Below the pieces are notes generated by a model. That model searched no databases. It was not told the DNA's origin and saw nothing but the letters and a program-made list of their open reading frames with translations. The position numbers were made by a program, and so were the translations under genes. Shown piece by piece: positions 3,954 through 49,861 of a stretch of DNA of 64,000 nucleotides (positions are counted from its first letter, which is position 1; each line of letters opens with the position of its first letter). This DNA comes from Dipteris shenzhenensis (lineage: Eukaryota): assembly GCA_047967505.1 (NCBI GenBank), contig CM106538.1. One strand, written 5' to 3'.

Positions 3954-6900
3954 ATAGTTTGTGGCTACACATGGGAGTCAGCCTTGAGAAATGAGACGAG
4001 GGATACAGGAGGAGTCCGAGGATCAGGCGGGGTCGCAGTATTGTACAGGTCTTCCCTCGCTCGAGCCATCTCCATTAAGAGGAAGGACGCACACTCCCGA
4101 TTCATGTGGATCCGGATCCGACGCACAGACATCCGTGACCTTTTCATAGCAATATGCTACTTCTCGCCAGACACATCCCACTTTGCCAGAGTGGCACGAG
4201 AGGAGGGTGAGACATCGCCATATGCACCCTTACATCAGGATATCCCAGACATTTCAGTCCGCGGTGAAGTTCTCCTCGTTGGGGACTTCAACGCCAGGAC
4301 GAGCACACACCAGACACCACTCCTGGACTTCTGAGACGACTCTATCATGCTACCAGACACGGACCTAGACGGAGCAGGTATGACCAAGACCTCATCGGAC
4401 CGACACGGGCCTGTTACACCATATGGACACGCGCTCCTTGATCTGGGCAGGATGCATGATCTCATCATCTACAACGGGCTTGACATATGGCCCTCCTCAG
4501 GTGGCTTTACTTGCTTCTCACATGGGGGGGGGGCACTAGTGTAGTAGATTACATCATGGGATCCCCTACCTTCACTTCATGTATCAACAACTTCACCGTA
4601 GCACCACTCCTCCAGGAGCTGATCACACATACCTATTCTTCACTATCACCACCCCACGCTTAGCCACACCACACACCTCATAGGACGCACGACACCTACA
4701 CGACATACACTTTGATCACAGCCTCTCACCGGCCTACTCTGGACGCCTAAACAGACTCCTAACCTACATCGATCACATACCACTCATAGAGGACCGTGCT
4801 GCCCTGATTAGTTGCACACTCCATGAGGCTGTTCTCCAAATGTTTCCCCACACCACATGGTTCACTAGACCACCACCTCTTGGTTCTGAACCCTGCAACA
4901 ATTGGTACGATGCGGAGTGCAAGGCTTATCGCCGACAGCTCCGACTTGAAACCAAATGTCACCTCCCGAACACACCAGACACGGTACGCAAGTATCGATG
5001 TCCCGTACGTCAGGCATCTCTTCGTCGAAATGAGGAGGAGCTGCTGCACATCGGAGATTCCTTGAGCGTAGGTCTCCATCACCTCTCACCGACACGAGAG
5101 TCTGGCACACGTATGCACACCATCTTTATGATGTCCCACACCAGCCCACTCCAGATCTCATACACAGACTTCGCCCCACCACTTGCACGTTGTTCACCAG
5201 AGGGGGAGTCAAGGACGTGACATTGAAGCTGCACAATGGCTGAGCTAAGGATCATGAGGGGCTATGCATTGAGTTTATCACATGGGATCGACACGTTAGC
5301 CCCGATCCTAGCAAAGCTATTCGATGACGCTGTTTGCCTTGGCTTCCCCTGCACCTGGACACTCAACACCATCACCCCCATCCACAAGGTAGGGGATCCC
5401 ATGGACCGGAGTAACTACAGGACTATCATGATTGGACATGTGATGCCCAAGATCTATGCAGCTGTATTGGATGCATCGGTCAGCCTGTTCGCAGAGATGA
5501 GTAGGCTCAGTGCAGAGGGTGAGGCCGGTTTCAGGCGAGACCATGGGACTATGGATCACATACTTACGCTAAGGAGTGTCATTGAGGAGGCCAGATCACG
5601 GAAGGAGAGGGTATATTGCTGCTTTGTGGATTTTCGAAAAGCCTTTGACACAGTAGCTCGAGCTCGTCTCATCACACGCCTACAGACACTGGGATTTGAT
5701 CAGGAGATCATCTAGGCAGTCATGGCACTGTATGAGAGAGTCTCAGGTCGAGTTCCGACAGGCGCAGGTTGGACAGATGAGATCTTGAGTACCATAGGAG
5801 TCAAATAGGGTTGTCCCTTATCACCGACCCTGTTTGGCCTCTACATCGATGAGCTTGAGACTTTCATGGGGGGGTTCGGAGGGACCGGTTGCTCACTTGT
5901 CGGGATCATCATCAGGATTCTTCTTTATGCAAATGATGTGGCACTCTTGTCGTCCACACCCAAGGGGCTTCAACGACACTTGGATGCATTGCAGGCTTTT
6001 TGTTTATCCCTATGATTTGGAGGTTAACCGTGGCAAGACCAAGGTCATGATCTTTAACACCTCTCGAGCAAACATGCAACGGAAGCAGTTTACTTTTGCT
6101 TTCGGTGGGTCACCAGTTGAGATCGTATCCTTATACACTTACTTGGGGGTCATCTTCTCTAGCCCAATCTTCACGATGAGACCAGCGATGTAGGTTAGAC
6201 TGAGCAGGGGATACGTCTCACTGGCTCGGCTGGAGAGACAATGCTTCCACTCCCACTTCCAGGATCCTTGGACCAAGGCTCTTCTCTTCGACTCCTTGGT
6301 CCGACCAACTGATATGTATGGCAGCCCTTGTTGGGGGCCTGACATGTCAGAGATAGAGTGGACACGGGTGGAGCGCCTGCAGATCCTCATGCTCTCATGG
6401 ATGATCAGGGGGAAACCGTCTGTACCACATCACATCATTCAGGCCGAGTTTGGTGCTTCTCCACTCCAGCTAGATGCAGTCTTTCAGACCATTATATATC
6501 TACATCGGGTTAGATCATATGGGGATTGCACATGAGGGAGACAGAGGTTGCCATGGTTGGCTCTCAATTCCTCCATGAGGTTGGCAGCAGAGGGAGACCA
6601 GCGATGCTGGTATGCACGGACTCACAGATGGTTTGTGAGACTAGGGTTTCACATCGATAGGATACCTCCTTTTTAGTACAGTTTAGATGCCCCTCCGGTA
6701 CTCCCACTTACCATCCGGATCGGGACACACACCAACTAGGTCATTCGTGAGGATCTCCTGTAGCTACACACCTTTAGGACTTGGTTGGAGCCGAGGGAGC
6801 TTCCAGTGAAGCTTAGTTTCTACAGAGATTACTTTCTTCGAATTTCGGAGGGATTCATCATACCACCGGGGTACATTGAGCTTCATATGCCTCACTCACT

Positions 6901-8388
6901 ATGGATCTCCATCGGACAGTTTTGGGTATCATCAGACCGCCTCCGCATAGAGAGCGGCAGAGCAAAGGGGATTCCTAGGGAGCATCGCTTATGCATATTG
7001 TGCGATTGTGAGGAGGTCGAGTCGGAGGACCATTTGATTTTCAGGTGCCCAGTGTACTACGAGATCCGAGGTCGCTACCACTGCCTCTTCAGAGATAGCT
7101 CCGGGCTCCTTTCCAGATTCCTCGCCTACCCAGATTAGAGATGCCTCGCGGCCTTCATTCACGAGGGGGTCCGACACAGAGAGTACTTACTTAGGCGACG
7201 GGGCTTGGCCACATCATCAGACACCTCTTAGAGCAGGATCACAGAGTTCTTCCCATCGAGTGACATTGATCGTCCAATCTCTAGCCGCAGACGTGACAGA
7301 GACCCCGACCCGACGGCCGCAGCACGACACACGAGACATCGAGGGGACACACATATCACTCTGGGAGACCTCCCGTCATTGTTTAGACCTGGGATACGTC
7401 CCACGGGAGTCACGGTGGCTCTGGTCTTGTGTCGAGCCTCGTGCAGGAGACCGGGACGTATAGCACCCCTTGACGGGCACCAGCGTCCCATCATCGGCTA
7501 TGCACCAGCTAGGGCGACATGACATACGGAGGATTCCGCTCCGCTCCAGTCCTTTTATGTTCATTGTTACATCCAGATGTATTTGATTTGATTATGTATG
7601 ATCAGACTTAGGATTCAGCATGGGTGATGATGCTCGTTTCAGTAGCTCCACCCTTACTATGATTTGTATCAGGTTTTCTTTCAGTCTCATAGACCCATCA
7701 GTCTTCTGAAGACTCTAATAAAATTTCTTTCTTTCTTTCTTTCTTTCTCTTATTTTCATTGTAGAATTTTGGACTTCAGAACAACAAAAATCTGAATTTG
7801 TATGATTGGATATATTCTAGTTTTACAAAGGTATATATGTCCTATCACAGACTCCATTCTGAAGTTGTTTTGTGAGTAGACTCTTGGAAGTGAAGACTAT
7901 ATTCTTTTGTTTGTATTTATAATGCTAATTTTGGAATGAACTGGGGCTTTTTATCAGTATCGATGACAAATCTGGTCTCAGGCTGACTAGTCTGCATAAC
8001 AGAAGTCAAGGGCAGTTGCAAGTTGTCGTTTTGGTGCCAAGATAAAAAATTTTGAGGGCTTGCTTCAATGCCTAAGCTGTGTATCCTTAAAGGTGCTGTA
8101 GACAAGTAAAACTGTTAATCTAAACTGTGAACTCTGGATTATTAGAAGGTTAGGTCCACATCTCCAACTTTTTTTTTGTAAATGGATAAGGGTATTAACT
8201 CAAAAAGATGGATAGTATAAACAACATTGTAAATGCTGCTTCCATGGTAATGTGAGAGTGCTTTGTACATGTCTTGCCATTTTCAGTGAAATTTATCGTG
8301 ATTTTTAAAATGTGATCGTCAAATCAATCACATTAGATAAGAGGGGGACTGGGGCTGATGGAAAGTGGTGGTGTGTGAAGCCTGACAG

Positions 8389-11300
8389 GTTGAAGAGATG
8401 AAGGAAATGATCGAGCGACTTCTGCTAGAGCGCCGACAGCTGACAGCTAAGATGGTAGCAATTCAAAGGGGCATGCATCAGCTTGAACGCGAGGCTACTA
8501 TACGCGCCCGTGTTGAAGACGAACTTGCTGTGGCGACCACTCCAGATTCTACTAAGGTTTAAGTCTTCAACATGTTTATATTGATCTTGTTTAAGAACCT
8601 TAATGTCAAATAGGCTTTTCCCCATTTTGGCTGTACGGCTTTTAATTATAAACACTGATTTAGAGCCTTCTTATTGTGCACCATATCCAGCTGTAATGAG
8701 TTCTGATCTTTGCTGCTTGCTTCCTGTTATCGGTGAGCTTTATCTGTACGTGGAATTTGCATTGTTTCATTCATTGGCGCAAGGGCTTTCAATTATATTG
8801 AATCAACTTATATTTAATGGGAGTTGCATGCACCTTTTTAAAAATAATACACGCAATTGCACATCAGTATGCCATTGAACATATGCCATTCTCCTCAGAT
8901 TCCTGCAAGGGAGGATGTATATCTGATAGATAAGGGATATTTAATATCAATGTTTTTAGTCCTAGAAGAGCCATCTGGATTCTGGCTAGAGCGATACACG
9001 ATTGATTATTGAACCAATGGGGAGTGAACCCTCCTAGGCTATGCCAACATCACCAAGCAATTCTTGATGCTCGTTGGGAAGAGACTAAAATGAAAACGTT
9101 TATAGACTTCACAAGCAGTTGTAGCTTGAATGAAGAGATTTTGGACTACCTTTTGATTAGCCTTCTCCTTTAGTGCTAGCCTTCGTCATGGCTGAGTGTG
9201 CCCTTCACCTTCGGAGTGCCGACAGAAACTCAGTACGAAGACTTTGTATAAATGGATGCTCAAGTATGTGTGGGTGTGTGGATTTGTATGTGTGAGAGCA
9301 TATTTTTATACTATGGTCTACACCCACTGTTGGGCGCTGATGACGTCAGTGGGGATGTCATAGTAGCTAGTCCCTGCTATGCATTATGGAGTTTATGGTT
9401 TTCAACCTTGTGAGTGACTATCATGAGATTGAAACTGCATTATGTTGTGTTTTTAGAGGATGAGTTTGCGAATGTTCCTGGATTCATCCAGGTATATGCT
9501 TCTACCGTATTAGCGGACATGCAAACTTCACCTTGTGAAGTTTTCGTCCAAGTTGCGGCGTGCTGGTATTTTGATAATTTTTTCTATCTTAAATGGTGCA
9601 TTGCCCTATCAGATAGATTTAGATTTAGATGCTCGTTGGGGAGAGACTAAAATGAAAACGTTTATAGACTTCACAAGCAGTTGTAGCTTGAATGAAGAGA
9701 TTTTGGACTACCTTTTGATTAGCCTTCTCCTTTAGTGCTAGTCTTCGTCATGGCTGAGTCTGCCCTTCACCTCCGGAGTGCCGACAGAAACTCAGTACGA
9801 AGACTTTGTATAAATGGATGCTCAAGTATGTGTGGGTGTGTGGATTTGTATGTGTGAGAGCATATTTTTATACTATGGTCTACACCCACTGTTGGGCGCT
9901 GATGACGTCAGTGGGGATGTCATAGTAGCTAGTCCTTGCTATGCATGATGGAGTTTATGGTTTTCAACCTTGTGAGTGACTATCATGAGATTGAAACTGC
10001 ACTATGTTGTGTTTTTAGAGGATGAGTTTGGGAATGTTCCTGGATTCATCTAGGTATAAGCAATTCTTGAAGCCAAATGTCATATCGTTGCAGTAGCTGC
10101 CATGTTCTCAACCTTGTGGAAAAAGCTCGTGGACTTTAAGCCAGATGTCATATTGCTCCAGTAGCTGCCACGTTCTTAACCGTGTGGACTTTTTGTTGTC
10201 ACCATTGCATTTTCTGGAGTTTTGGACTGCATTTTCTCCAAACCAATTAGATTTGGAGAAGCCTATTGAGAGACTGATATTTTTTTGATTTAATTAGATT
10301 CGGTGGGATGTACCCCAAATTCTTGCAGCTGCTTTGAGATAGCATAGAGAGATACATATTCCAGATTTCTTTGGATCCGGATTCGGCACCTAGACAGCCG
10401 GGATCTGTTTGTCGCAGTTTGCTACTTCCCCCTGAGACCTCCCACTTTGCCAGAGATATCGGAGGTGATGATGAGACATCCCCATTTGCTACTCTTTATC
10501 AGTCCATCGTTGACTTCTCTAGCCGCGGAGAAGTCCTCCTAGTGGGGGACTTCAATGCAAGGACAAGGGCCTGTCAGGTACCACTTCTTGACTTCAGAGA
10601 TGATTCTACTCTACTGCTAGATATTGACCTTGAGGAGGCAGGTATGCTACGGGTTTCGGCTGATAGGCGAGGTCCATTCTCATCTTATGGGCAGGCCCTA
10701 TTAGACCTTGGCAGGATACATGATCTCATTATCTACAATGGTTTTGACAGGTGGCCCGCCTCAGGTGGTTTCACATGCTTTCCACATGGGGGGGCTCCAG
10801 CGTTGTTGATTACATCATGGGATCCCTTGCCTTCACATCTCGCATCACTGACTTCACTGTAGCACCTCTCCCCCCGGGGGCTGATCATACATACCTTTTC
10901 TTTAGCATCTCCACCTCTTCGCACAACACCTTCCACCCCACTCAGTTCTTACTCCACCTAACACGATATACGCTTTGATCGGGATACTCTGGCCGTCTGT
11001 ACATACTTCTCGCTTATATTGACTTCATACCCCTTTTAGAGGATCGTGCTGCTCTTGTCACCCGCTCACTACACGAGGCTGCCATTCATGCTTTCCCCCA
11101 CACCACCCGCTCCACCCGTCCACCACCCCTGGGAACTTTGTAATAGTTGGTACGATGATGAGTGTAAGGCTTTACGTCGTCAGCTCAGATTCGACAAAAA
11201 AAAATAGTCTTCCGAGCACCAGCCAGGGCGACATGACATACGGAGGATTCTGCTCTGCTCCAGTCCTTTTCTTTTCATTGTTACATCCAGATGTATTTGA

Positions 11301-11446
11301 TTATGTATGATCAGACTTAGGATTCAGCACGGGTGATGATGCTCGTTTTAGTAGCTCCACCCTTACTATGATTTGTATCAGGTTTTCTTTCAGTCTCATA
11401 GACCCATCGGTCTTCCGAAGACTCTAATAAAATTTCTTTCTTTCTT

Positions 11447-11494
<48 letters not shown>

Positions 11495-12936
11495 GCACGC
11501 ACACACTTTTTTTAGTAAAGCTTTTATTAGATGGGTCTTCCAAAGACTAATAAAATTTATTTATTTATTTCTCTCTCTCTCTCTCTCTATAGCAGCATAG
11601 GGCCAATAAGGCTCTCAAAATCAGGATCCGTGGGATCCCACGGACAGAGGTTACATCGATGGATGATGCGACCATCTTTGTTGCGACCACTTCAGGGATT
11701 CCTGATCGTGCTATTGTGGGAGCATGGTGAGTGGGGAGAGATCCCAACAGAGAGCAGCCCCTCATTATACAATTAAGAGACACTCAGGCACGCCTGGCAG
11801 CATTGCATCGCAGATTGACCTTATGAGATCACCCCTCGATATTTATCGATGAGGACCTGACACCTCTATAGATAGAGAAGAGATGCGTTCTCTTAGTGTG
11901 GGCCGGATGTCTCATCACCGGTCCCGGTCGGACATCTAACCACCCTCCCACGTAGGGGGGGGGGATCTATGAGGCGCGAGATACCGAGACCCTCCCTTAT
12001 ATCATCTGGAATTGTAATGGTACCTTATGGTCAGAGCCTGGGAATTCCTCGGAGTTTCTCGGAGTCCTACATAAGACGAGATGGTGTTTTTAATATAGAG
12101 ACACATCAGAGCCCAGAGCGTCCCCTTCCGATAGTCAGGGAGTATACTTGGGAATCAGCCTTTAGGGAGGAGACGTGGGAGACAGGTGGAGTACAGAGAT
12201 TCGGTATCACTACCTGACATGGATCTTGTTGACGTTGGCATATCACGAGTGTCTGCTAACGGGCGGGGCCCCAGCACCTCATAAAACATGTGCTCCTTGA
12301 TCTGGGTACAATACATGATCTCATTCTTTACAATGGTCTTGAGCGATGGCCCTCCTCTGGTAGCTTTACCTGTTTTCCACATGGAAGAGGGTCTAATGGT
12401 CTTGGGATCCCCTACCTTCATACCACACATCACATACTTCTTTGTGTCACCACCTCCACTTGGAGCTGATCACACTAATCTCTTCTTTAGCATCACCACT
12501 CCTCGCCTCGTGACACCAACCACCTACACCACCTACCAAGATATACACTTTGATCACAACTTCTCACAAAATACTCCGCACGGCTTTATACATTGCTCAC
12601 TTACATTGACCACATGCCCCTTCTGCCCCTTATAGAGGACCGTGCCACACTTATTAGTCGTTCATTGCACGACATTGCCCTTCACGCTTTTTCGTACATC
12701 ACACGCTCTACTCATCCACCACTGCCTCTTGGTTCTTTACCATGTAATAGCTGGTATGATGAAGAGTGCTCTTCGCTAACAACTCCGATTCAAGACCAAG
12801 CATGGCCTTCTGAGCGAACCAAACACGATATGTGAGTATCGTCGTCTAGTCCGCCGGAAGAAACAAGCCTTTGTTTGTTGAAATGAGGAATTATTGAACA
12901 TTTTGTTTAGTAACAACTCCAAGGACCTTTGGCAGA

Positions 12937-12984
<48 letters not shown>

Positions 12985-15900
12985 AATTTTACGTCTTCGG
13001 AAGACCGATGGGTCTATGAGATTGAAAGAAAACCTGATACAAATCACAGTAAGGGTGGAGCTATTGAAACGAGCATCATCACCTGTGCTGAACCCTAAGT
13101 TTGATCATACATAATCAAATACATTTGGATGTAACAATGAAAAGAAAAGGACTGGAGCGGAGCGGAATCTTCTGTATGTCATGTCGCCCTAGTTGGTGCA
13201 TAGCTGGTGATGGGACGTTGGCACCCATCAAGGGGTGCCGCGCGTGTCGGTCTCCTAGACGAGGCTCAACACAAGACCAGAGCCACCGTGACTCCCATGG
13301 GACGTATCCCGGGTCTAAACAATGACGGGAGGCTTCCCAGAGTGATTTGTGTGTCCCCTCGATGTCTCGTGCATCGTGCTACGGTTGTCGGGTCGGGGTC
13401 TCTGTCACGTCTACGGCTAGAGACTGGACGATCGATGTTACTCGATGGAAAGAACTCTGTGATCTTGCTCTGAGAGGTGTCTGATGATGTGGCCAAGCCT
13501 CGTTGCCTGAGTAAGTACTCTCTGTGTCGGACCCCCTCGTGAATGAAGGCCGTGAGGCATCTCTGATCTGAGTAGGCGAGGAATGTGGAAAGCAGCCCGG
13601 AGCCGTCTCTGAAGAGGCAATGGTAGTGACCTCGGATCTCATAGTACACTGGGCACCTGAAAATAAAATGCTCCTCCGATTCAACCTCCTGACAGTCGCA
13701 CAATATGCATAAGCGATGCTCCCTAGGAATCCCCTCTGCTCTGCCACTCTCTATGCGGAGGCGGTGTGATGATACCTGAAACTGTCCGATGGAGATCCGT
13801 AGTGAGTGTACCCCGGTGGTGTGATGAATCCCTCCTCCGAAATACGAAGACAGTAATCTCTGTAGAAACTCAGCTTCACTGGAAGCTCCCTCGGCTCCAA
13901 CTAGGTCCTAAAGGTGTGTAGTTGTAGGAGATTCTCTCGAATGACCTAGTTGGTGTGTGGCCAATCAGGATGGTGGGTGGGAGTACCGGAGGGGCATCTA
14001 AACTGTACTGAAAAGGAGGTATTCTATTGATGTGGAACCCTAGTCTCACAAACCATCTGTGAGTCCGTGCATACCAGCATCGCTCGTCTCCCTCTGCTGC
14101 CAACCTCATGGAGGAATCGAGAGCCAACCATGGCAACCTCTGTCTCCCTGATGTGCAGTCCCCATATGATCTAACCCGGTGTAGATATGTGATGGTCTGA
14201 AAGGCTGCATCTAGCTGGAGTGGAGAAGCACCAAACTTGGCTTGAATGATGTGATGTGGTACAGACGGTTTCCCCCGGATCATCCATGAGAGCATGAGGA
14301 TCTGCAGGCGCTCCGTCCGTGTCCACTCTATCTCTGACATGTCAGGCCCCCAACAAGGGCTGCCATACATACCGGTTGGTCGGACCAAGGAGTTGAAGAG
14401 AAGAGCCTTGGTCCGAGGGTCCTGGAAGTGGGAGTGAAAGCATGGTCTCTCTAGTCGAGCCAGTGAGGCGTATCCCCTGCTCAGTCTGGCCTGCATCGTT
14501 GGTCTCATCATGAAGATCGGGCCGGAGAAGATGACCCCCAAGTAAGTGTATGAGGATACGATCTCAACTGATGACCCACCGAAAGTAAAAGTAACCTGCT
14601 TCCGTTGCATGTTTGCTCGAGAGGTGTTAAAGATCATGACCTTGGTCTTACTAAGGTTGACCTCCAAATCATGGGATAAACAAAAAACCTGTAGTGCATC
14701 CAGGTGTCGCTGGAGCCCCTCGGGTGTGGACGACAAGAATGCCACGTCATTTGCATAAAGAAGAATCTCGGCAAGTGAGCAACCGGTCCCTCCGAACGCC
14801 CCCATGAAAGTCTCAAGCTCATCGATGTAGAGGCCAAACAGGGTCAGTGATAAGGGACAACCCTGTTTGACTCCTATGGTACTCAAGATCTCATCTGTCC
14901 AACCTGCGCCTGTCCGAACTCGGCCTGAGACTCTCTCATACAGTGCCATGACTGCCCAGATGATCTCCTGATCAAATCCGAGTGTCTGTAGGTGTGTGAT
15001 GAGACGAGCTCGAGGTACTGTGTCAAAGGCTTTGTGGAAATCCACAAAGCAACAATATACCCTCTCCTTCCACTGGTGTGGGACATCATAAAGATGGTGT
15101 GCATACGTGTGCCAAACTCTCGTGTCGGTGAGGGGTGATGATGACCTACGCTCAAGGAATCTCCGCCAAAAATCCTTAGAGTTGCTGTTGTACAAGATGT
15201 GCAGCAGCTCCTCCTCATTTCGACGAAGAAATGCCTGCTTCTTTCGACGTACGAGACGTGTTTACTTGCGTACTATGTCTGGTGTGTTCGGGAGTTGACA
15301 TCTGAGTTCAAGTCGGAGTTGTCGGCGATAAGCCTTGCACTCCGCATCGTACCAATTGTTGCAGGGTATAGAACCAAGAGGTGGTGGTCGAGTGGACCGT
15401 GTGGTGTGGGAAAGATTTGGAGGGCAGCCTCGTGGAGTGTGCGACTAATCAGGGCAGCACGGTCCTCTATGAGTGGTATGTGATCGATGTAGGTTAGGAG
15501 TCTGTTTAGGCGTCAGTGGGGATGTCATAGTAGCTAGTCCCTGCTATGCATGATGGAGTTTATGGTTTTCAACCTTGTGAGTGACTATCATGAGATTGAA
15601 ACTACACTATGTTGTGTTTTTAGAGGATGAGTTTGGGAATGTTCCTGGATTCATCTAGGTATATGCTACTGCCGTATTAGCGGACATGCAAATTTCACCT
15701 TGTGAAGTTTTCGTCCAAGTTGCGGCCTGCTGGTATTGTGATAATTATTTCTATCTTAAATGGTGCGTTGCCCTATCAGCTAGATTTAGATTTAGATGAT
15801 CCTTGGGGAGAGACTAAAATGAAAATGTTTAGACTTCACAAGCAGTTGTAGCTTGAATGAAGAGATTTTGGACTACCTTTTGATTAGCCTTCTCCTTTAG

Positions 15901-17924
15901 TGCTAGCCTTCATCATGGCTGAGTCTGCCCTTCACCTCCGGAGTGCCGACAGAAACTCAGTACGAAGTTTGTATAAATGGATGCTCAAGTATGTGTGGGT
16001 GCGTGGATTTGTATGTGTGAGAGCATATTTTTATACTATGGTCTACACCCACTGTTGGGTGCTGATGACGTCAGTGGGGATGTCATAGTAGCTAGTCCCT
16101 GCTATGCATGATGTAGTTTATGGTTTTCAACCTTGTGAGTGACTATCATGAGATTGAAAGTGCACTATGTTGTGTTTTTAGAGGATGAGTTTGGGAATGT
16201 TCCTGGATTCATCTAGGTATAGGAGTCTGTTTAGGCGTCCAGAGTAGGCCGGTGAGAGGCTGTGATCAAAGTGTATGTCGTGGTAGGTGTCGTGCTTTGT
16301 ATGTGGTGTGTGTGGTTTGGCGATAGTAAAGAATAGGTATGTGTGATCAGCTCTTGGAGGGAGTGGTGCTACGGTGAAGTTGGTGATACATGAAGTGAAG
16401 GTAGGGGATCCCATGATGTAATCTACTAGTAACACTAGTGCGCCCCCCCCCCCCGTGTGGGAAGCAAGTAAAACCACGTGAGGAGGGCCATAGGTCGAGT
16501 CCGTTGTAGATGATGAGATCATGCATCTTGCCCAGATCAAGGAGCGCGTGTCCATATGGTGTAACAGGCCCGTGTCGGTCCGATGAGGTCCTGGTCATAC
16601 CTGCTCCGTCTAGGGCCATTTCTGGCATGATAGAGTCGTCTCGGAAGTTTAGGAGTGGTGCCTGGCGCGTGCTTGTCCTAGCGTTGAAGTCCCCAACGAG
16701 GAGAACTTCCCCGCAGGCTGAAAGGTCTGGGATATCCTGATGTAAGGGTGCATATGGCGATGTCTCACCCTCCTCTCGTGCCACTCTGGCGAAGTGGGAT
16801 GTGTCTGGCAAGAAGTAGCATATTGCTATGAAAAGGTGACGGGTGTCTGTGAGTCGGATCCGGATCCACATGAATCGAGAGTGTGCGTCCTTCCTCTCAA
16901 TGGAGATGGCTCCAACGAGGGAAGACCTGTACAATACTGTGACCCTGCTTGATCCTCGGACTCCTCCTATATCCGTCGTCTATTAACGTCCACGGAAGAC
17001 CAAAGGTCTATGGGACAATAGAAAAACCATCTCCTTTCAGCTTGTAAGACTATCGTAGAACTTTCAATCATGAATTGAATGTAATGACAGCATATCCTTT
17101 ACATTTACCAATACGAACTGCTCTAGCTTCACCATCTTCATTAGGGCTGTTAGGCTTGTCGTCCTCGTTTGCTGTCCAGTCAATGTTAGGCATGGCTGAT
17201 TTGACATGTGCTAAGGTATCATCAAATGAGTCCTCCTCATTGTACTATCCATCTGGAAGTCCCTCAATTCTGATTTTTAATGCATTATCATGTCTGGCTT
17301 CATGTTCTTTTATCTCTTCTTGAATATCAACTTTGTTTGCCTTTGCTTCAAACTCTGGAGACTAACTCGGGGGTAGGGGGGGAAGCTGTGCAAGACTTTA
17401 CAACCTCATCTATTACTTCCTGCTTACCAGGTCCTTCAAGCACCTAGATTGTAGTTATTGCATCCGCCAGTTGCATCTTCAACTCTCTCACCTAATCTTG
17501 TAGGAACAAAATACATTCATGATACCCAATGATGGGTCGGTGAAAAAGGCCTCCTCATTCATAGACTTATGTATATGGAGAGGGTGTTTGAGCTGCAATC
17601 ATGGCATATCTGGCTCTATTGGTCGGTGTTGTTGGAGTTGAGGGGGTTTTTGAGGAAGAGGAAGAAAGGCTGGGCCACTCTTTGCTGGCCATTCTCTTGC
17701 TACCCCCTAGTTGCGTTGGGGGTTCAGTCCAGCTATGGGTGCTCTCTTCAAATAATAACCGGCTGGAGCTTGGCGTTGCTGCTGTCTATACCCCCCTCGA
17801 CCTAAGGAGCTGAGCGGGAGAGGTAAGCTGAGCGGAGAGCTAACGGGATAGGTGAGCGCTGAGTGGAGAGGCGAGCGGGAGAGTTGAGCGGAGCGCTGAG
17901 CGGAGAGGTGTGCGGGGGGGGTGA

Positions 17925-29500: not shown

Positions 29501-29760
29501 CATCGCTAGGAATTGCTTGTAGGCTTGACCCCTCCACTACCATCCAGAGGACCAAATGCATTGATGCCACACCACAACTTCTTTCCTCTCCATGGGAATC
29601 ATACATTTGATGTATTAGTGTTTCTATTTTTATGTTACATGTGTCGGGTGTAGATGCCCATCTACAGACTCCACCCATTAAGGTCATTGTATCTAGTTCT
29701 CAGTCTCATAGACCCTTTGGTCAAAGACATTTAGTTAACTCTCTCTCTCTCTCTCTCTCC
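26550..29760 (+). mobile_element. Highly degenerate RTEX-like LINE (ORF1, endonuclease, RT remnants, 3' end and (CT)n tail)
   Basis: Homology to copy A: GSSVVDYLMGS, IIEEARAWRQRVYCY, DFHKA, VK*GCLLSP, GKTKVMIFNTS; ends CAGTCTCATAGACCCTTTGGTCAAAGAC...(CT)n; ~155-bp internal duplication at ~26890-27160. Confidence 0.8.
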
Positions 29761-29860
29761 CCACCCCCCAATCGGTCCTTTTTTTTAATTGCTTGTTGTA
29801 TCTCTCAGTATTTTCACAAATTGGGTGGTCCTGCAAAGAGACAACATGCCCAACCAACAC

Positions 29861-32800
29861 TTCCTACATTGGTTTTACCACTTGCTCATTAGAGCTCCCC
29901 TCGACAACCCCCCTTAATTTCCCTAATTTCTTTTCCCTCAAACTCCCTTATTCTCCCCTACACATACACTTACACACACTTCCTATTCATTCCCCCTTTA
30001 CTTTTACCTTATTTTTTCCTTCTCGCCCCCCCCTTTTTTCTCCTAATTCTCTAATATCTATTCTCCCTATAGTTCTTTTTTTTGGAAAAAAAACCCCCTT
30101 CTTTTTTAATTTCACCTGACTTTACCTTGACTTCTTCCCCCCTCTTTTCCCTAATTTTCTCCCCCTAAATTTTTCTATTTTACTCTAATCTCCCTAAAAA
30201 CACCTTCCTAAGTTTCCCCTATTCCCCCTAAGTTCCCCTAATTTTCTCCCTACTTTCCCCTATCTCCCTCTAATTTTTCCTAGTTCTTAACTATGTGTTA
30301 CAATCTTTTCTATTTTTCTCCTTTTATTTTACCTTGTTTCTCGATTTTTCACTAATTACCCTACTCTACTTTTCACTAAATTACCCTACTCCTTTTTGTA
30401 CTATGTCCTCTATTTCTCCTTTTTTCCCTTATTAATTCTTTCACCAACTTCTCCCCTATTTTCGCTATTAAACTAATTCTCCCCTATTAGTCCCAAGGCT
30501 CTCTAAAGCCCTTTTTGTCCCCTATGCTAGGCCTACCTATGACCTTTCTACACACTAGCAGCCCTTAATGCTACTCACCACCTGTGCGCTCACGTGCATC
30601 TCCTACCATCCTTCTCTCTTCAGCTTCCTCGGGCTCTTCACCTCCCCGACTTCCCCTGCCCCGACTAGCCTAGCTTTCCCTTTAAATTAAACCCTCTCCT
30701 TCCACTCACCACCTACCCACTACTCTCAGATCTCGCTGCCCATGTTCGCCTTGCCTCACTTCCGTCATTCCTCAAGCCTAGAGCCTCTACACCACCTTAT
30801 ACTAACTTGCCCGCTCCCCAAAGTCCCCCCAACTGTTAAGCACCCTGGCAAAACCTACTCTATCCTTCACCTCTGCCCACTCCTCTACTCACTGTGCACA
30901 AACCCTCCCCCCCACTCCTCTATTCTTTACCTCTACATCATCACCCACCCCCTAGCTGCGGCTCATGACTCGAAAGCTTTCTCAAGCCCTGTGCGAGACA
31001 CACGTGCAACTTGACTCGCCACCCTTCATGACTATGGACTCACAGGTCCAGGGCCTTTTCATCTTTTTTGAAACCACCCCCCCCAAACTTTCCCTCTTAT
31101 TTCAAAAACACCCCCTTAAACTTTCCCTCTTATTTCCCTCTTATCACTCTTATTTCAAACCCCCCCCCCAAACTTTCCCTCTCCCTTCTTTTATAGTTAA
31201 TTTTGGCTCTTTCTTTCAAATCTTTTCCCACTTTAATTTTTTATCCAAACCCCTAATCCCAAAGTACCCTTAGTGCCTTTCTCTAACCTTTTTCTTCCCT
31301 CCTTATCCTTAAATTTTCTCTTTTTTTTGGGCATTTTTTCCACTTTATTTAATCCTAACTTTTCTTTCCTTGTTCTAAATGTCCCCCTCCCAATTTTTAA
31401 ATAAAGTGTCAACCTATTTTCTTTCCCTCCCTTAATTTTTCTTCTAAAAATCCCCCTCTAATTTATTTAAATACATATCCCCTAACTTTCTCCTTATCTT
31501 TCTATTTCTTTATGCTTTAAATTGTCTCTTTTAACCTTCCTCTCCTTCCTTTCATTTCTTATCTCCTTACAAATAAACCCTCGGTCTTTCCCACCTATCA
31601 CACTTTCACCTAACCCCTCCATTTCACCATCCCTCCCCTTATTTTTATCTAAAGGATCTCTATTAACACCTTTTTCCCATATCTTTATTTTTTCATAAAA
31701 CTTAAATTGCTCTTCCGTCTGCGAAAATGCCTCACTAATCAATTTTGCAACTTGCTTTGTAAAGTGCGTTGTTATGTAGATATTTTTTTGTGACTCTAAT
31801 AACAAGGGAGGGGTGTTTATGACACTTGCCTTCCCAACTAAGCTTTAACTAGTTCTTACCACGTTTTTCTTGTTGGATGGTGGCAGGCAGGTAGGCAGAC
31901 TCCCATCTTCAATAAAAGTGATGCTGCCAATGACTTATCAAAGCTTTACTGTTCACATTTTCTCTTTTGGGAGAAATTGTTCGTCCTTTAATGATGCTAC
32001 TTCATTGTTTTTGTGATGTTTATTGCAAAGTAAATCTATTAAACATTTCTCTTTCCTACTCTAAATTTATCTACTCTTCACTATGGAAGGGGGTGTTGTA
32101 AATGTCTACTACACACACATACTTTCCTTTGCAACTTTGGATGGTTGCACATAGGACCTTTAAGTCATCAAGGTCGTTTTTTGGCTTTTTGACTCCGTGA
32201 TTTGACTTGGTTTTCCTCTTTACTTCCATATTGTTCACCTACCTCACTCAAGTACTTCTTCCATTTCCATTATTTTAAATTGCACTTCTCAATACTTCTT
32301 ATTCTCTTCGGGTAGACAGTCGGTTATCACACTCGGTTATCACACTATGTGGTGACCTATTGTCTCACCTAGTGTGTTGTATCCTACTAGGGCAAAGGTG
32401 GGTACACACACACACACACACTCTCTCTTACTATCCCTACCTACATTGGTTTTACCACTTGCTTATTAGAGCTCCCCTTGACAACCCCCCTTAATTTCCC
32501 TAATTTATTTTCCCTTAAACTGCCTTTTTCTCCCCTACACATACACTCACACACACACTTCCTATTCATTCCCCCTTTACTTTTACCTTATTTTTTCCTT
32601 CTCCCCCCCCCCCCCCTTTTTTCTCCTAATTCTCTAATATTTCTTCTCCTTGTAGTTCCTTTTTTTGGGAAAAAAAGCCCCCTTCTTTTTTTATTTCACC
32701 TGACTTTACCTTAACTTCTTCCCTCCTCTTTTCCCTAATTTTCTCCCCCTAATTTTTCCTATTTTACTCTACTCTCCCTATCATCCTTCTCTCTTCAGCT

Positions 32801-34530
32801 TCCTCGGGCTCTTCACCTTCCCAACTTCCCCTACCCCGACTAGCCTAGCTTTGCCTTTAATTGAACCCTCTCCTTCCACTCACTACCTACCCAATACTCT
32901 CAGATCCCGCTTCCCCACGCTCCCTGCGCCCTGCCTCACTTCTGTCATTCCCCAAGCTCGCAGCCTCTGCACCACCTTATACTTTCTTGGCCGCTCCCCA
33001 AAGTCCCCCCCACTATCCGGCGCCCCTGCAAAACCCGCTCTATCCTTCACCTCTGCCCACTCCTCTGCTCACTGTGTGCTAACCCTCCCCCCCGCTCCTC
33101 TATTCTTTGCCTCTACATCATCACCCCATCACTCTGGCTACAGGCTGACAACTGCAAAGCTTTCTCGAGCCCTGTGGGACATAGATGCGATTTGACTCGC
33201 TGCCCTTCACGACTACGGACTTAGAGGTCTAGTGGCCTTTTCATCTTTTTTGAGACCAACCCCCCCCCCCCCAAACTTTCCCTCTTATTTCAAAAACCCC
33301 ACTTAAACTTTCCCTCTTATTACTCTTATTTCAACCCCCGCCCCCCAAACTTTCCCTCTCCCTTCTTTTAGAGTCACTTTTGGCTCTTTCTTTCAAATCT
33401 TTTCCCACTTTAATTTCTTCTCCAAACCCCTTATCCCAAAGTACACTTAGCGCCTTTGTCTAACCTTTTTTCTCCCTCATTCTTAAATTTTCTCCTTTTT
33501 TTGGTCATTTTTTCCACTTTATTTAATCTTAACTTTTCTTTCCTTGTTCTAAATGGGCCCCTCCCAATTTTCAAATAAAGTGTCCACCTATTTTCTTTCG
33601 CTCCCTTAATTTTTCTTCTAAAACTCCCCCTCTAATTTTTTTAAATACCTATCCCCCAACTATCTCCTTATCTTTCTATTTCTTTATGCTTTAAATTGTC
33701 TGTTTTCAACTTCCTCCCCTTCCTTTCATTTCTTATCTCCTTACAAATAAACCCCCGGTCTTTCCCACCTGTCACACTTAACCCCTCCATTTCACTATCC
33801 CTCCCCTTATTTTTACCTAAAGGATCTCTATTAACACCTATTTCCCATATCTTTAAATTTTCATAAAACTTAAATTGCTCTTCCATCTGCGAAAATGCCT
33901 CACTAATCATTTTTACAACTTGCTTTGTAAAGTCCTTTGTTATGTGGATATTTTTCTTATGACTCCGATAACAAGGGAGGGGTGTTTATGACACCTGCCT
34001 TCCCAACTAAGCTTTAACTAGTTCTTACCACATTTTTCTTGTTGGATGGTGGTATAGGTAGGTAGACTCCCCTCTTCAATAAAAGTGATGTTGCCAACGA
34101 CTTATCAAAGCTTTACTGTTCACATTTTCTCTTTGGGGAAATGATGATTTTTTTGGTGATGTTTATTGCAAAGTTTATCTATTAACCATTTCTCTTTCCT
34201 ACTCCAAATTTGTCTAATCTTCACTATGGAAAGGGGTGTTGTAAATGTCTACTACACACACATGCTTTCCCCTGCAACTTTGGACAGTTGCACATAGGAC
34301 CTTTAAGTCATCAAGACCGTTTTTGGGCTTTTTAACTCCCTGATCTAACTTGGTTTACCTCTTTACTTCCATACTGTTCACCTACCTCACTCAAGTACTT
34401 CTCTTTCATTTCCATTACTTTAAATTGCACTTCTCAATACTTCTTATTCTCTTTAGGTAGATAGTAGGTCATCACACTAGGTGATGACCTATCTCACCTA
34501 GTGTGTTGTATCCTACTAGGGCAAAGGTGG

Positions 34531-34565
<35 letters not shown>

Positions 34566-36520
34566 CGCACGCACTTAGTATCCCTTCCTACATTGGTTTT
34601 ACCACTTGCTCATTAGAGCTCCCCTTGACAACCCCCCCTAATTTCCCTAATTTCTTTTCCCTCAAACTCCCTTATTCTCCCCTATGAATACACTCAACAC
34701 ACTTCCTATTCATTCCCCCTTTACCTTCACCTTATTTTTTCCTTCTTTCCCTGCCCCCCCCTTTTTTCTCCTAATTCTCTAATATCTATTCTCCCTATAG
34801 TTCCTTTTTTTGGGAAAAAAAACCCCCTTCTTTTTTAATTTCACCTGACTTTACCTTAACTTCTTCCCCCCTCTTTTCCCTAATTTTCTCCCCCTAATTT
34901 TTTCTATTTTACTCTACTCTCCCTAATTCCCCCCAATTTTCTCCTAAAAACACCTTCCCTAAGTTTCCCCTATTCCCCCTAATTTCCTCTAATTTTCTCC
35001 CTACTTTCCCTCCTCTCCCTCTAATATTTCCTATTTCTTAACTGTGTTACAACTTTTTCTATTTTTCTCTTTTTATTTTACTTTATTTTTCTCTTTTTAT
35101 CTTAATTGTGTTACAACTACCTACCCACTGCTCTCAGATCCTGCTGCCCATGCTCCCTGCGCCTTGCCTCACTTCCATCATTCCCCAAGCCCGCAGCCTC
35201 TGTACCACCTTATACTTTCTTGCCCGCTCCCCAAAGTCCCCCCACTGTTCGGCGCCTCCGCAAAACCCGCTCTATCCTTCACCTCTACCCACTCCTCTGC
35301 TCACTATGCATGCCCTCCCCCCCGCTCCTCTATTCTTTACCTCTGCATCATCACCCCAGCCCCCTGGCTACGGCTGACAACTGCAAAGCTTTCTCGAGCC
35401 CTATTCAACTTGCCACCCTTCACGACTATGGACTTGCAGGTCTAGTGGCCCGTTCATCTTTTTGGAAACCACCCCCCCCCCCCCCCAAACTTTCCCTCTT
35501 ATTTTAAAAACCCCCCTTAAACTTTCCCTCTTATTACTCTTATTTCAACACCCCCCCCCCTCCCCCCCCAAACTTTCCCTCTCCTTTCTTTTATAATTAA
35601 TTTTGGCTCTTTCTTTTAAATCTTTTACCACTTTAATTTTTCCTCCAAACCCCTAATTCCGAAGTACACTTAGCGCCTTTCTCTAACCTTTTTCCTCCCT
35701 CCTTATCCTTAAATTTTCTCCTTTTTTTTGGCGTTTTTCCCACTTTATTTAATCCTAACTTTTATTTCCTTGTTTTAGATGTCCCCCTCCCAATTTTTAA
35801 ATAAAGTGTCCTTAACCTATTTTCTTTCCCTCCCTTAAATTTTCTTCTAAAAATCCCCCTCTAATTTATTTAAATACCTATCCCCCAACTTTCTCCTTAT
35901 CTTTCTATTTCTTTATGCTTTAAATTGTCTCTTTTCAACTTCCTCCCCTTCCTTTCATTTCTTATCTCCTTACAAATAAACCCCCAGTCCTTTCCACCTA
36001 TCACACTTTCACCTAACCCCTCCATTTCACTATCCCTCCCCTTATTTTTATATAAAGGATCTCTATTAACACCTTTTTCCCATATCTTTAATTTTTCATA
36101 AAGCTTAAATTGCTCTTCCGTCTGCGAAAGTGCCTCACTAATCATTTTTACAACTTGCTTTTAAAGTCCGTTGTTATCTGGATATTTCTATTATGACTCC
36201 CATAATAAGGGAGGGGTGTTTATGACACTTGCCTTCCCAACTAAGCTTTAACTAGTTCTTACTACGTTTTTCTTGTTGGATGGTGGCAGGTAGGCAGACT
36301 CCCCTCTTCCATAAAAGTGATGCTGCCAACGACTTATCAAAGCTTTACTATTCACATTTTCTCTTTTGGGAAAAATTGTTCATCCTTTAATGATGCAATT
36401 TCATTTTTTTTGTGATGTTTATTGCAAAGTTGATCTATTAAACATTTCTCTTTCCTACTCCAAATTTGTCTACTCTTCATTATGGAAAGGGGTGTTGTAA
36501 ATGTCTACTACACACACACA
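29861..36520. repeat. Head-to-tail array of three related 1.9-2.6-kb pyrimidine-rich elements separated by (CA)n
   Basis: CCTACATTGGTTTTACCACTTGCT starts units at ~29863, 32440 and 34587; units 1 and 2 end CTAGGGCAAAGGTGGGTA(CA)n; homologous minus-strand ORFs at 31494-31805, 33668-33910 and 35897-36145. Confidence 0.9.
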
Positions 36521-36949
36521 CATGCACGCGTGCACGCGCACACATCCCAATTGCACTATATAATAATTGATGAATTCCTTAATTAACTTCCAATATTTTC
36601 TTATTGGAGTGCATACCACATACATGTGGAAGTCATCTCTTTGATGCTTTATCCACCTTTGGCTAAACCTATTTGATTTTTTATTTTAGTGGGATCTTGC
36701 ATTTGACTAGACTACATGATCATTGGTCATCCACCTCAATTTTTCATGCATTTAAAAAAGGAGAGCTCAAACATCCTCCCCCACCTTGCACGTCCATCCC
36801 TCTTTCTCTCCTTGGTATTGAGTTAGCTAGTCAATAGTTTATTATCTTTAGGAGAAAAAAGCAACTGCACATTGAGCGAGTCAAGCAAGAGTTTATTATC
36901 TTGGGAATAATAAGAAATAATTCCTAAGGTCCCATCAAGACTTCCAAAT

Positions 36950-47300: not shown

Positions 47301-49861
47301 AGGGGACTCAAGAGCTGAAGCCATCAGCAATATTTCCACCTGAGAATCTCTCTCTCTCTCTCTCTCTCTCATACATCCTTGTCTCATGAAAGTTAAACGT
47401 ACACTTGCAAATGTCGTCTCTGTTTAGAATATAGTCCTTTTGCACTTCTCAGCTGCTGTATTCAGGTAAGTTTAATGTTGAAGAGGCCTATGGGTTTGGA
47501 AGGAAGTGTCTGCAGCAGCTTGACTTAAGCCTTTATTGTGCAGGATGATGAAAAAGATATGGAAACTGACAGTCCAGCAACAGCTTTTCCAGCTACCTCA
47601 TACAAGCATTCTTCGCTTCCTGAACTAGAAGTATTAAGTTACCTGCTAGTACTAGTCTTCTTAATTGATCAGAAGCAGTACAAAGAAGTAAGTTTTATTT
47701 TTTGTCGGTGCGTTAAATTTTTTAAGGCTTAGAAAATGGAGACTTTTATTGGGGCATCTGACATGGTTTTTTCATTGAGGCAGGCCAAAACGTGCTCTTC
47801 TGCTGCAATGAACCGGTTAAAGAGCCTTAATCGTAGGACAGTTGACGTCATTGCTGCAAGGCTGTACTTCTATTACTCTTATAGCTATGAGTTGACTAAC
47901 TCTCTTGTTGAGATAAGGGGGTAAGAATCTTCTTTCATAACGCCTCGAAACAGTATCACTGACTGAGGGTAACTTTTCTAAATTATCTCCTTGGTGTCTT
48001 CAGCACCTTGCTTGCACTACATCGGACTGCTACCTTGCGTCGTGATGAGCTGGGCCAGGTATGAAAACTAATCGACATACTTGTGTCCTTAGCTTATTTA
48101 AATTGTGATAGGGTTAACTTCCGCTTGGTTTATTTATCAAAAGGAGCTTGACAGAGTTGGGACTTTTTTTTCTGTGCACAGGAAACTCTGCTAAATCTTT
48201 TGCTGAGAAACTACTTGCAGTATAACCTGTATGACCAGGCAGAAAAGCTGCGTTCCAAGACACAGCGACTAGAGTCTCATTCTAATCAGCAGGTCTCTAA
48301 TTTGGAGCATCTAAACATTCTCTGCTTTGTCTACTTTTATTCGTGAGACACGTCTTGCATATATCTTAGTTAAAGGTGTATTTTACAGCTCTGTCGTTAC
48401 CTGTATTACTTGGGAAGAATTCGCACCATACAGCTTGAATACACAGATGCCAAGGAAAGCCTCCTACAAGCGGCTCGTAAAGCTCCTGTGAAGGCAAGAG
48501 GTTTTCGCATCCAATGCAATAAATGGGCTGCCATTGTGCGCCTTCTGTTGGGAGAGATTCCTGAACGGACAACATTTATGCAGCCTGGCATGAAGAAAGC
48601 TCTTAAGCCATACTTCGAGCTAACAAATGTAAGTTTTAAATGTGTTAGTGATACATGGTAAGGTCATACACACAGGCATGCAGATCGATCTATCTATCTA
48701 CGCGTGAGTGCACGTGCGACTCTCTGTCTGTCTCTGTCTCTCACTCTCCCCCCCCCCCCCCCAAATACACGCACAGACACATGCATGCACATACCTACCT
48801 ATCTACATACATATATAGATACATACATACCTGTCTATCTATTACTTATCTATCTTAAGTACGTATGTATGTGTACATATATATTAGTATGTACATATGG
48901 ATGCAGGCATGTACGCACATACCTATGAACATATCTACCTAATCTACCTACATAGATACAATTGTACATACTTATACACATGTGCACACATGTATAGATA
49001 GATACATACAAACATACATATATTATGTATGTGTGTAGGTGTAGGTGTAGGTATGTATGTGTATCTCTGTGGGGCGATGTATTCAGGCGACAGGAATGGA
49101 TGCATCTAGGTAGATGGGAATGGATGCATGCTTGTGCGCCTGTGTGACGACAACATATGCGTTTATTGGACAAATGAGAAAAGGATGTTGTGCGCTTCTT
49201 TTTTTCTGTTAAGATACTTGATTTGGTTGGTTTGCTGCGTGAACCATCTGTATACATGAGGGTATAAAAATCATTAAAAAAAAAATCTCCACTTTTGGGA
49301 ATATTGTTTTACCTTTTGAGCAAACAATTGATTTTATATATGCAGGCTGTCCGCATTGGAGATCTTGAACTCTTCCGCACGGTTGCGGATAAAAATTCCA
49401 GCACATTTCATGCTGACCGGACTCACAATTTGATTGTACGCTTGCGGCACAATGTGATCAGAACTGGCCTGAGAAATATCAGCATCTCCTATTCATGCAT
49501 TTCTCTTGCTGATGTGGCAGCCAAGCTCAGGTTAAATTCTGCAACGGCAGTAGCAGACGCCGAAAGCATTGTGGCCAAGGCCATACGAGATGGTGGAATA
49601 GAAGCTTGTATAGATCATGCAAACGGATGGATGCAATCTAAAGAGACTGGTGATATCTACTCATCCAATGAGCCTCAGCTTGCATTTCACACTCGGATTG
49701 CATTCTGTCTCAACACTCACAATGAAGCGGTCAGAGCTCTTCGTTTTCCACCAAATGCTCACAAGAAGGAGCTTGAAAGTGCAGAAAAGCGGCGTGAGCG
49801 GCAGCAACAGGAACAGGAACTAGCAAAGCATATTGCAGAGGAAGACGAGGGTGATTTTTAG
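40912..49861 (+). CDS. RPN3: 26S proteasome non-ATPase regulatory subunit 3 (lid, PCI domain); exons 40912-41011, 41107-41297, 47544-47687, 47784-47920, 48004-48058, 48182-48292, 48389-48628, 49346-49861 (497 aa)
   Basis: All GT-AG introns with compatible phases (1494-nt CDS). Motifs [72 protein letters not shown] and [22 protein letters not shown]. Confidence 0.96.
42441..44350. repeat. Inverted pair of ~150-bp (CT)n-containing repeats (42441-42598 +, 44209-44350 -) in RPN3 intron 2
   Basis: TCCTATCTACTTCCCCTCCTT...CCTA(CT)n...CCCTTCTTCCTCTCTCTCCCT...CTTATGCTATTCTATCCC present in both orientations. Confidence 0.8.
42690..43300 (+). mobile_element. L1-like RT remnant
   Basis: [17 protein letters not shown] and RSLRQGCPF motifs, with internal deletions. 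Confidence 0.6.

Follow-up and report, generated by a model that had tools for sequence, protein, structure and literature searches.

A dispersed, apparently undescribed family of non-coding fern retroposons with one fixed 3' end and partial tandem copies

How does a short non-coding sequence come to be inserted in a fern genome in copies that run past its own length and stop at one and the same point? The question is raised by a 64,000-nucleotide (nt) stretch of contig CM106538.1 of Dipteris shenzhenensis (GenBank assembly GCA_047967505.1; the window, by which we mean this whole stretch), in which a ~560-nt non-coding unit stands in two separate insertions, each holding more than one unit head to tail. 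A preliminary description, made from the letters alone, had proposed a retroelement templated by a circular or tandem RNA and possibly mobilised by a neighbouring long interspersed nuclear element (LINE). Our results reveal a real, dispersed family of non-autonomous fern retroposons, apparently undescribed (a literature search, outside which Repbase and Dfam lay, found no published account), with one fixed 3' end, variable 5' ends, target duplications of 13-21 base pairs (bp), partial tandems, local hairpins and no coding capacity. The family fits no standard class cleanly, mixing partial tandems of the Penelope or retrozyme type and LINE-type duplications with no tail and no known ribozyme. 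The explanation that we favour, at about even confidence, is that these are non-autonomous retroposons without long terminal repeats (LTRs), made when a LINE-type enzyme copies, by target-primed reverse transcription, a plus-strand RNA in which the head-to-tail junction is already present.

Two insertions with their own target duplications

Insertion 1 occupies positions 9068-10057 of the plus strand (990 nt, 1.76 units) and insertion 2 positions 15515-16219 of the same strand (705 nt, 1.26 units), in agreement with the coordinates and unit counts first reported; BLAST and nhmmer detected no further copy in the window. Each consists of a 5'-truncated upstream unit (9068-9496, unit positions ~134-562; 15515-15663, unit positions ~414-562), followed by a complete unit that stops at the fixed 3' end (9497-10057, of a 562-nt type; 15664-16219, of a 558-nt type). 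Both end in ...TCTAGGTA(T), and their 5' starts differ and carry microhomology, GA in insertion 1 and CGTC in insertion 2, so that the previously claimed combination of fixed 3' end, variable starts and microhomology holds for both. The junction between units, CTAGGTA/TATGCT, is identical in the two insertions and contains no added bases, with one private change upstream of it in insertion 1.

Each insertion is also bounded by a direct repeat of its own, as had been claimed. Specifically, the 13-bp AAGCAATTCTTGA occurs exactly at 9055-9067 and 10058-10070 (plus strand) and nowhere else in the window, its left copy sharing its last 2 nt (GA) with the unit, while the 20-bp TAGGAGTCTGTTTAGGCGTC is repeated exactly at 15495-15514 and 16220-16239 (plus strand), its left copy lying within a minus-strand LINE and sharing its last 4 nt (CGTC) with the unit. 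The chance of such matches within 3 nt either side of the boundary is ~3e-7 and ~3e-11, respectively. TAGGAGTCTGTTTAGGCGTC further occurs once on the minus strand (4761..4742), within a paralogous LINE, and this single copy at 4742-4761 is the empty site of insertion 2; the paralogue thus carries the uninterrupted target, and the earlier claim that insertion 2 splits a LINE is upheld. Beyond insertion 1, the target region continues into a degenerate ~70-bp direct repeat (10071-10190).

Relatives outside the window

Pattern scans of metagenomes returned seven loci, one of them a true relative (L006), the other six having no match beyond the pattern. No true relative was found by scans of viral contigs (10, 0, 0 and 0 loci) or of prokaryote genomes (0 and 11 loci), and a scan of plasmids gave no match to the unit. 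L006, on a metagenome contig (2440-2001, minus strand), matches the window unit with an nhmmer E of 1e-122 and ~78% identity: 98 of 438 aligned sites differ, and blocks of 76, 18 and 7 nt are missing from it. It is a single unit of 440 nt that starts at about unit position 22, its first five letters being TATGC, the letters that follow the junction in the window, and it ends at CTAGGTA as the window copies do. An exact 21-bp target duplication flanks it. Next to L006 lie the gag gene of a copia element and a primer site, and L006 itself is apparently located in the copia LTR; the gag matches only its own cluster and look-alikes from Streptophyta. The signature of target-primed reverse transcription, namely a fixed 3' end, 5' truncation and a long duplication of variable length, is therefore present in three of three insertions.

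Further members appear to lie in sequencing runs. Parts of the unit are carried by 20 of the 24 runs listed, six of them with at least half of its words, and no RNA run is among those listed; runs with a small share of the unit are not used here. Four runs from four studies (X1, X3, X4 and X5), one of which may be the window's own source, were compared with 9020-9640, a region with the fixed end at its middle, and yielded 792, 10, 551 and 233 matching contigs, respectively, with identities from <90% to >99% and no cover of the host flank in any run. In X1, X4 and X5, summed contig depth drops 79-, 16- and 20-fold just past the fixed end; within the unit it is far higher over the 3' two-thirds than over the initial ~170 nt, where it is low. 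Contig depth is no copy number and contigs cannot prove an end, so we read depth as a pattern only, one that points to many diverged members, mostly 5'-truncated, with a common 3' end. As the run types (RNA or DNA) of all four are a guess, we conclude nothing on expression of the unit. Two observations stand apart from this pattern. First, depth in X1 rises about six-fold at 9104, and one X4 contig joins 9497 to 9115 through six letters, possibly marking a subfamily with a shorter monomer of ~390 nt (9104-9115). Second, X4 and X5 contain contigs of 1.3-2.3 kb in which diverged stretches of the unit are embedded, old copies that sit within longer transcripts or repeats.

These relatives bear on the simplest alternative, in which the two insertions would be a local duplication, repair filler or a satellite fragment, in line with there being only two copies in the window. 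The separate target duplications, the empty site of insertion 2 and the hundreds of diverged contigs in three runs all stand against it, and L006, a third copy elsewhere with the same 3' end, refutes local duplication, leaving this alternative with next to no probability. The preliminary description had itself allowed that only two copies might exist, or that other copies might have random 3' ends and no duplications; what was found instead is L006, with the same end and its 21-bp duplication, and matching contigs in four runs. Its observation of "unit-2-type" variants at the start of insertion 2 is correct insofar as the variants are present, but they are merely the majority states of the family, the other alleles being private to the first unit of insertion 1: at 9385, 9440, 9469 and 9489, ~89-100% of depth has the majority state in all four runs. 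That insertion 2 is a separate event follows from its independent target duplication, not from these variants.

What the units say about the template

Sister units within an insertion differ at 9 of 428 sites (insertion 1) and 3 of 149 (insertion 2), whereas units of different insertions differ at 18 of 557 and 15 of 424 sites and by two 2-nt indels. Over unit positions 132-409, eight events set both units of insertion 1 apart from insertion 2; over positions 410-562, covered by all four units, all eight variable sites are private and none is common to the two upstream units. Because sister units are closer than units of different insertions and upstream units share no variants, the two units of each insertion come from one template type, and nothing points to a fixed two-unit master. 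The transition:transversion ratio of sister units (7:5) does not differ significantly from that of the window's LINE pair (181:56; P 0.17), so changes before and after insertion are not told apart.

The same comparison bears on whether the unit could belong to a larger element, a LINE or another kind, as the tandem repeat at its 3' end, with truncated ends being all that is seen of it. An upstream body is conceivable, given that three of three copies are truncated or have at most one unit on their 5' side. However, upstream and downstream units show no position-specific variants, the unit has no similarity to LINE ends in the window, and the contigs of X3 close into one unit, no exit from it being among those listed. 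We consider such a larger element very improbable.

The X3 tiling is as follows. A 559-nt contig makes one turn of the unit (its joint runs from 9627 to 9066, 562 back), and a 61-nt contig (9484-9544) overlaps both of its ends by 30 nt, whereby, as we read it, the graph closes. A further hint comes from the target sites. The first target bases of the three insertions are AAGC, TAGGA and TATAC, and 10 of their 14 positions match TATGC, the sequence that would be read through beyond the junction (P 7e-4 at 0.27 per base), a hint of pairing between the nicked target and the part of the RNA that lies past the copied end.

Coding capacity, class signals and RNA structure

The unit has a GC content of 41-42% and little that could assign it to a class. 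Its longest stop-free frame, when circularised, is 73 codons; ARAGORN detected no tRNA gene in the window and the unit has no tRNA head; and no poly(A), A-rich or simple-repeat tail follows the 3' ends of insertion 1, insertion 2 or L006, so that the absence of long frame, tail and tRNA head noted earlier is borne out. The circularised unit contains no polymerase III A- or B-box pattern and no Met primer binding site (PBS). As to a polypurine tract (PPT), the sole purine run of 10 or more lies on the minus strand, with none on the plus strand. No LTR signal, 5S-derived region or type III hammerhead was found in the unit, and an Rfam scan gave no family at gathering level, only weak matches far under the gathering scores.

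Predicted folding is stronger. The whole unit, taken as a circle, folds better than shuffled sequences on both strands (z -2.9 to -4.8; 30 shuffles), and its last 48 nt contain a 14-pair, G.U-rich hairpin that ends 6 nt before the fixed end (10020-10051, plus strand) and is kept in L006. These 48 nt score z -3.59 as plus-strand RNA, -1.99 as minus-strand RNA, and -1.93 (plus strand) and -0.46 as DNA; the last 98 nt score -3.84 as RNA versus -1.19 and -0.86 as DNA, and the L006 equivalent of the last 48 nt scores -1.89 as RNA in the same sense. By these predictions, the structure of the unit fits RNA better than DNA, and the terminal hairpin is a candidate recognition signal for a reverse transcriptase.

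A second local structure, the helix CCCACTG/CAGTGGG (9323-9329/9347-9353 within 9323-9353, plus strand), encloses CTGATGA, is present in the other units too, and has paired variants in the runs: 9328T>C and 9348A>G stand at 34.6/29.4% in X4, 0.41/0.45% in X1 and 2.2/2.6% in X5. A second pair, 9329G>A and 9347C>T (24/29% in X4), could also be explained by methylation decay. Between the window and L006, 5 of 122 predicted pairs show a two-sided change. Taken together, conserved local hairpins are supported, and a conserved global fold is not. A palindrome, CTCCGGAG (9772-9779), lies in a hairpin loop region and is kept in L006 despite 22% divergence; it could be a site of RNA dimerisation or protein binding.

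Known ribozymes were sought in several ways. No Rfam ribozyme matched at E<=10 in 8500-16800 or L006, a relaxed hammerhead pattern had no match on either strand, and core words of the hairpin and twister ribozymes were absent or isolated. A relaxed descriptor of the hepatitis delta virus (HDV) type matched 0-19 times per strand versus 0-20 in 15 shuffles, with none at the junction and none in L006. CTGATGA was considered as a hammerhead core and rejected: no stem II and GAAA follow it, L006 has TTGATGA, and it lies inside the competing, covarying helix.

The neighbouring LINE as target and candidate mobiliser

The LINE split by insertion 2 (12960-16981, minus strand) encodes an APE-type endonuclease, a reverse transcriptase (RVT_1, E 2.7e-20) and a zinc knuckle, has a (TC)n tail at 12941-12980, and is 85-90% identical to an uninterrupted copy at 3994-7750. 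The nearest named relatives of its reverse transcriptase are in Adiantum nelumboides and Ceratopteris richardii. Five of the six ends listed for this family have its own 3' motif and then a (TC)n or (TTTC)n run, and no target duplication was found in three of three copies tested. Its tails, together with the lack of a detectable duplication, suggest microsatellite targeting. The unit and the LINE ends of the window share no 3' sequence, the best match being 12 nt, antisense, with an E of 0.26. The earlier proposal that this LINE mobilises the unit thus finds no support: its 3' motif and tails are different, it shares no 3' sequence with the unit and no duplication flanks the three copies tested. 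The neighbouring LINE stands here as a target. APE-type LINEs as such do fit the 13-21-bp duplications and the 5' microhomology of 2-4 nt. The LINE ends with the common 3' motif lie at 7686, 11395 and 29705 (plus strand) and at 13020, 17014 and 17996 (minus strand); at 17014, such an end is joined without a gap to another copy that is truncated at its 5' end.

A proposed route from RNA to DNA

In the mechanism that we favour, the plus strand of the ~560-nt unit would be transcribed into an RNA that already contains the head-to-tail junction, either a monomer circle or a processed multimer, with roughly even odds between the two. A reverse transcriptase with an endonuclease, provided in trans and with some APE-type LINE besides the neighbouring one as its likeliest source, would recognise the terminal hairpin, and the nicked target strand would pair with a few bases at and just past the junction (UAUGC). 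Copying would then continue until the enzyme falls off, early stops giving sub-monomer copies and long runs passing the junction to give copies of 1.3-1.8 units whose two units would be identical at the start. The RNA end itself might be made by a new kind of ribozyme or a host nuclease, or be due to priming inside a circle. This scheme is supported by three independent insertions, which share their 3' end and have duplications of 13, 20 and 21 bp. Of the preliminary proposal of a circular or tandem RNA template, a junction-holding RNA, circle or multimer, remains the favoured candidate, and a strictly circular template makes up about half of this reading; linear multimers, Penelope-type partial tandems and template jumping fit as well. 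A more specific version, in which the unit would be a high-copy fern family of small circular RNAs, primed internally by a LINE enzyme at one fixed site of the circle, with a junction that either bears a self-cleaving RNA of undescribed kind or bears none, we regard as doubtful.

Several points weigh against this mechanism. The complete insertions examined number three (insertion 1, insertion 2 and L006), and neither circular nor linear RNA of the unit was observed, the data being assembled contigs of guessed type. No mobiliser is identified among the window frames and window LINE ends, and no cleaving motif that would account for the fixed end was found with Rfam or the hammerhead and HDV descriptors. 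No X3 record bridges the junction with 31 letters on each side, and a closed graph would also result from dispersed partial tandems, with no circle needed. Since the first two target positions are explainable by endonuclease preference, they were removed in a recount of the target matches, which fall to 5 of 9 (P 0.07), with 7 of 21 further on. Conservation of the whole-unit structure in L006, scored on a fold taken from one window unit alone, is not significant for the plus strand (P 0.06-0.18), with P 0.0006-0.02 for the minus strand. Finally, a linear monomer would account equally well for L006, a single unit whose start lies within 22 nt of the junction.

This last point leads to an explanation akin to short interspersed nuclear elements (SINEs), in which the template would be a linear monomer with defined ends and a LINE reverse transcriptase, on reaching the 5' end of one RNA, would jump to another transcript of the same source gene at its 3' end; template jumping by non-LTR reverse transcriptases is established. 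SINEs mobilised by LINEs of the L1 or RTE type resemble the fern unit in their fixed 3' end, 5' truncation, 13-21-bp duplications, 5' microhomology and many copies, and they differ from it in that the unit has no tRNA, 5S or 7SL head, no A-rich or simple-repeat tail and no 3' end shared with a LINE in the window, and in its precise head-to-tail read-through. The start of L006 at TATGC and the low depth over unit positions 1-131 in X1, X4 and X5 would be expected of such a monomer. However, a junction that is identical and free of added bases in two of two tandem insertions, target matches that reach into the read-through sequence, and the lack of a polymerase III box, tRNA head or tail argue otherwise. 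L006 may be an exact linear monomer, or equally a plain truncation at position 22, because it keeps the pairing partners of the missing segment. We therefore judge a linear, jumping template to be unlikely.

Comparison with known elements

Metazoan non-LTR retrozymes, as far as the cited text describes them (Cervera and de la Pena 2020, PMC7229834), resemble the fern unit in having tandem non-coding monomers, GC below 50%, no LTR, PBS or PPT, large target duplications, strong folding and more-than-unit copies, which were explained there by a circular template; for Nematostella retrozymes, tandem repeats with 15-bp duplications are described (in part of PMC4918200). By the same excerpts, they differ in carrying a type I hammerhead in each monomer, whereas neither this nor another known ribozyme was found in the fern unit; in monomer length (150-450 nt versus 560 nt); and in forming long arrays with abundant circular and linear RNA, in contrast to a unit with copies of one to two units and one fixed 3' end, known from DNA sequence alone. 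Plant LTR retrozymes, miniature retrotransposons with terminal repeats (TRIMs) and Cassandra are likewise small non-coding plant retroelements with direct repetition, and the plant LTR retrozymes use circles of 600-1000 nt, according to the sections cited (PMC4918200, PMC7761336). As described there, these elements have an LTR pair, PBS, PPT and 4-5-bp duplications, and none of these was found in the fern unit, its duplications being 13-21 bp. The unit thus lacks the defining features of plant LTR retrozymes, TRIM/Cassandra and SINEs, and the hammerhead that defines non-LTR retrozymes.

Penelope-like elements provide a structural parallel to the partial tandems. In the non-autonomous MRC1 and Chlamys-N types, by the portions of PMC8557442 cited here, a truncated copy precedes a full copy, the 3' end is fixed without poly(A), the 5' end is truncated, duplications are variable and a hammerhead is often absent, and two of our three insertions are such partial tandems, resembling pseudo-LTRs. 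The unit might be a non-autonomous element of this type, its upstream partial unit a pseudo-LTR, copied by a Penelope-like protein with GIY-YIG and reverse transcriptase domains from the fern genome. The order of truncated and full copy, 5' truncation and variable duplications is the Penelope pattern stated in that source, and, by the same text, Naiads and most Chlamys are without hammerheads and non-autonomous Chlamys form head-to-tail copies. Against this stand the longer duplications of the fern unit (13, 20 and 21 bp, versus 8-10 bp given for rotifer Penelope elements in the cited part of PMC3846280), the absence of an inverted 5' copy in three of three insertions, and targets that are not microsatellites. 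Further, the hosts given in the passages cited are algae, spike mosses and conifers, ferns not being among them, and no GIY-YIG, Penelope-like or Rep frame, nor any autonomous partner, is present among the 77 window frames (6 + 71) scanned with Pfam. We hold a Penelope-like origin to be possible and rather unlikely. It does temper one earlier argument, that long duplications of variable length are a hallmark of APE-type LINEs: target-primed reverse transcription is still their best explanation, but Penelope-like elements, on the evidence of the passages in PMC8557442, make variable ones too.

A DNA-based route would be a non-autonomous rolling-circle element of the Replitron or Helitron type, in which over-run of a circular single-stranded DNA would give more-than-unit copies. 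Replitrons are, according to the parts of PMC10288648 cited, common in ferns (>500 copies estimated in Adiantum nelumboides), with one fixed and one fuzzy end, hairpins, and variable duplications in Chlamydomonas, and the fern unit is hairpin-rich. By the same parts, however, other Replitron families, the fern one included, are reported without duplications or fuzzy ends, and Replitron-1 has an RG target; the fern unit has long duplications in three of three insertions, no RG beside the fixed end in any of the three and no Rep frame in the window. Its terminal hairpin is also weak as DNA and strong as RNA, and we find the rolling-circle route very unlikely.

Significance

For non-LTR retrozymes, both the mobiliser, with LINEs and Penelope-like elements each proposed, and whether the circle is the template are left open in the cited sections of PMC7229834 and PMC7761336. 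In a young family whose duplications are clean, whose copies share one fixed 3' end and whose lengths fall on either side of the one-unit mark, copy counts within one fern genome can put both questions to the test. If the circular-RNA reading is true, the family would be a plant counterpart of animal non-LTR retrozymes without a hammerhead. If the junction self-cleaves, it is a candidate new ribozyme; if it does not, the family would represent a poly(A)-free, hairpin-guided route from multimeric or circular RNA to DNA.

Other features of the window

Two further tandem arrays lie in the window. The first, at 29827-36521, holds about three copies (87-92% identical), arranged head to tail, of a non-coding, pyrimidine-rich unit of ~2.2 kb with a GC skew of ~-0.55; the array begins right behind a 3' motif of the LINE type and a (TC)n run (29705-29760), and its frames have no Pfam match. 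The second, at 53687-54567, consists of an AT-rich unit of 357 bp in 2.5 tandem copies (94% identical); inspection by eye showed no obvious duplication at its flanks, and it may likewise be an element of the partial-tandem kind. The plus strand also carries exons of a gene for the 26S proteasome subunit RPN3/PSMD3 (48374-48658 and 49268-49861), of which the segment 49340-49858 has, in keeping with a fern host, 91% identity to proteins of Adiantum nelumboides and Ceratopteris richardii; among the 120 matches listed, identity is 88% for Marchantia and, for the most part, 81-88% for seed plants.

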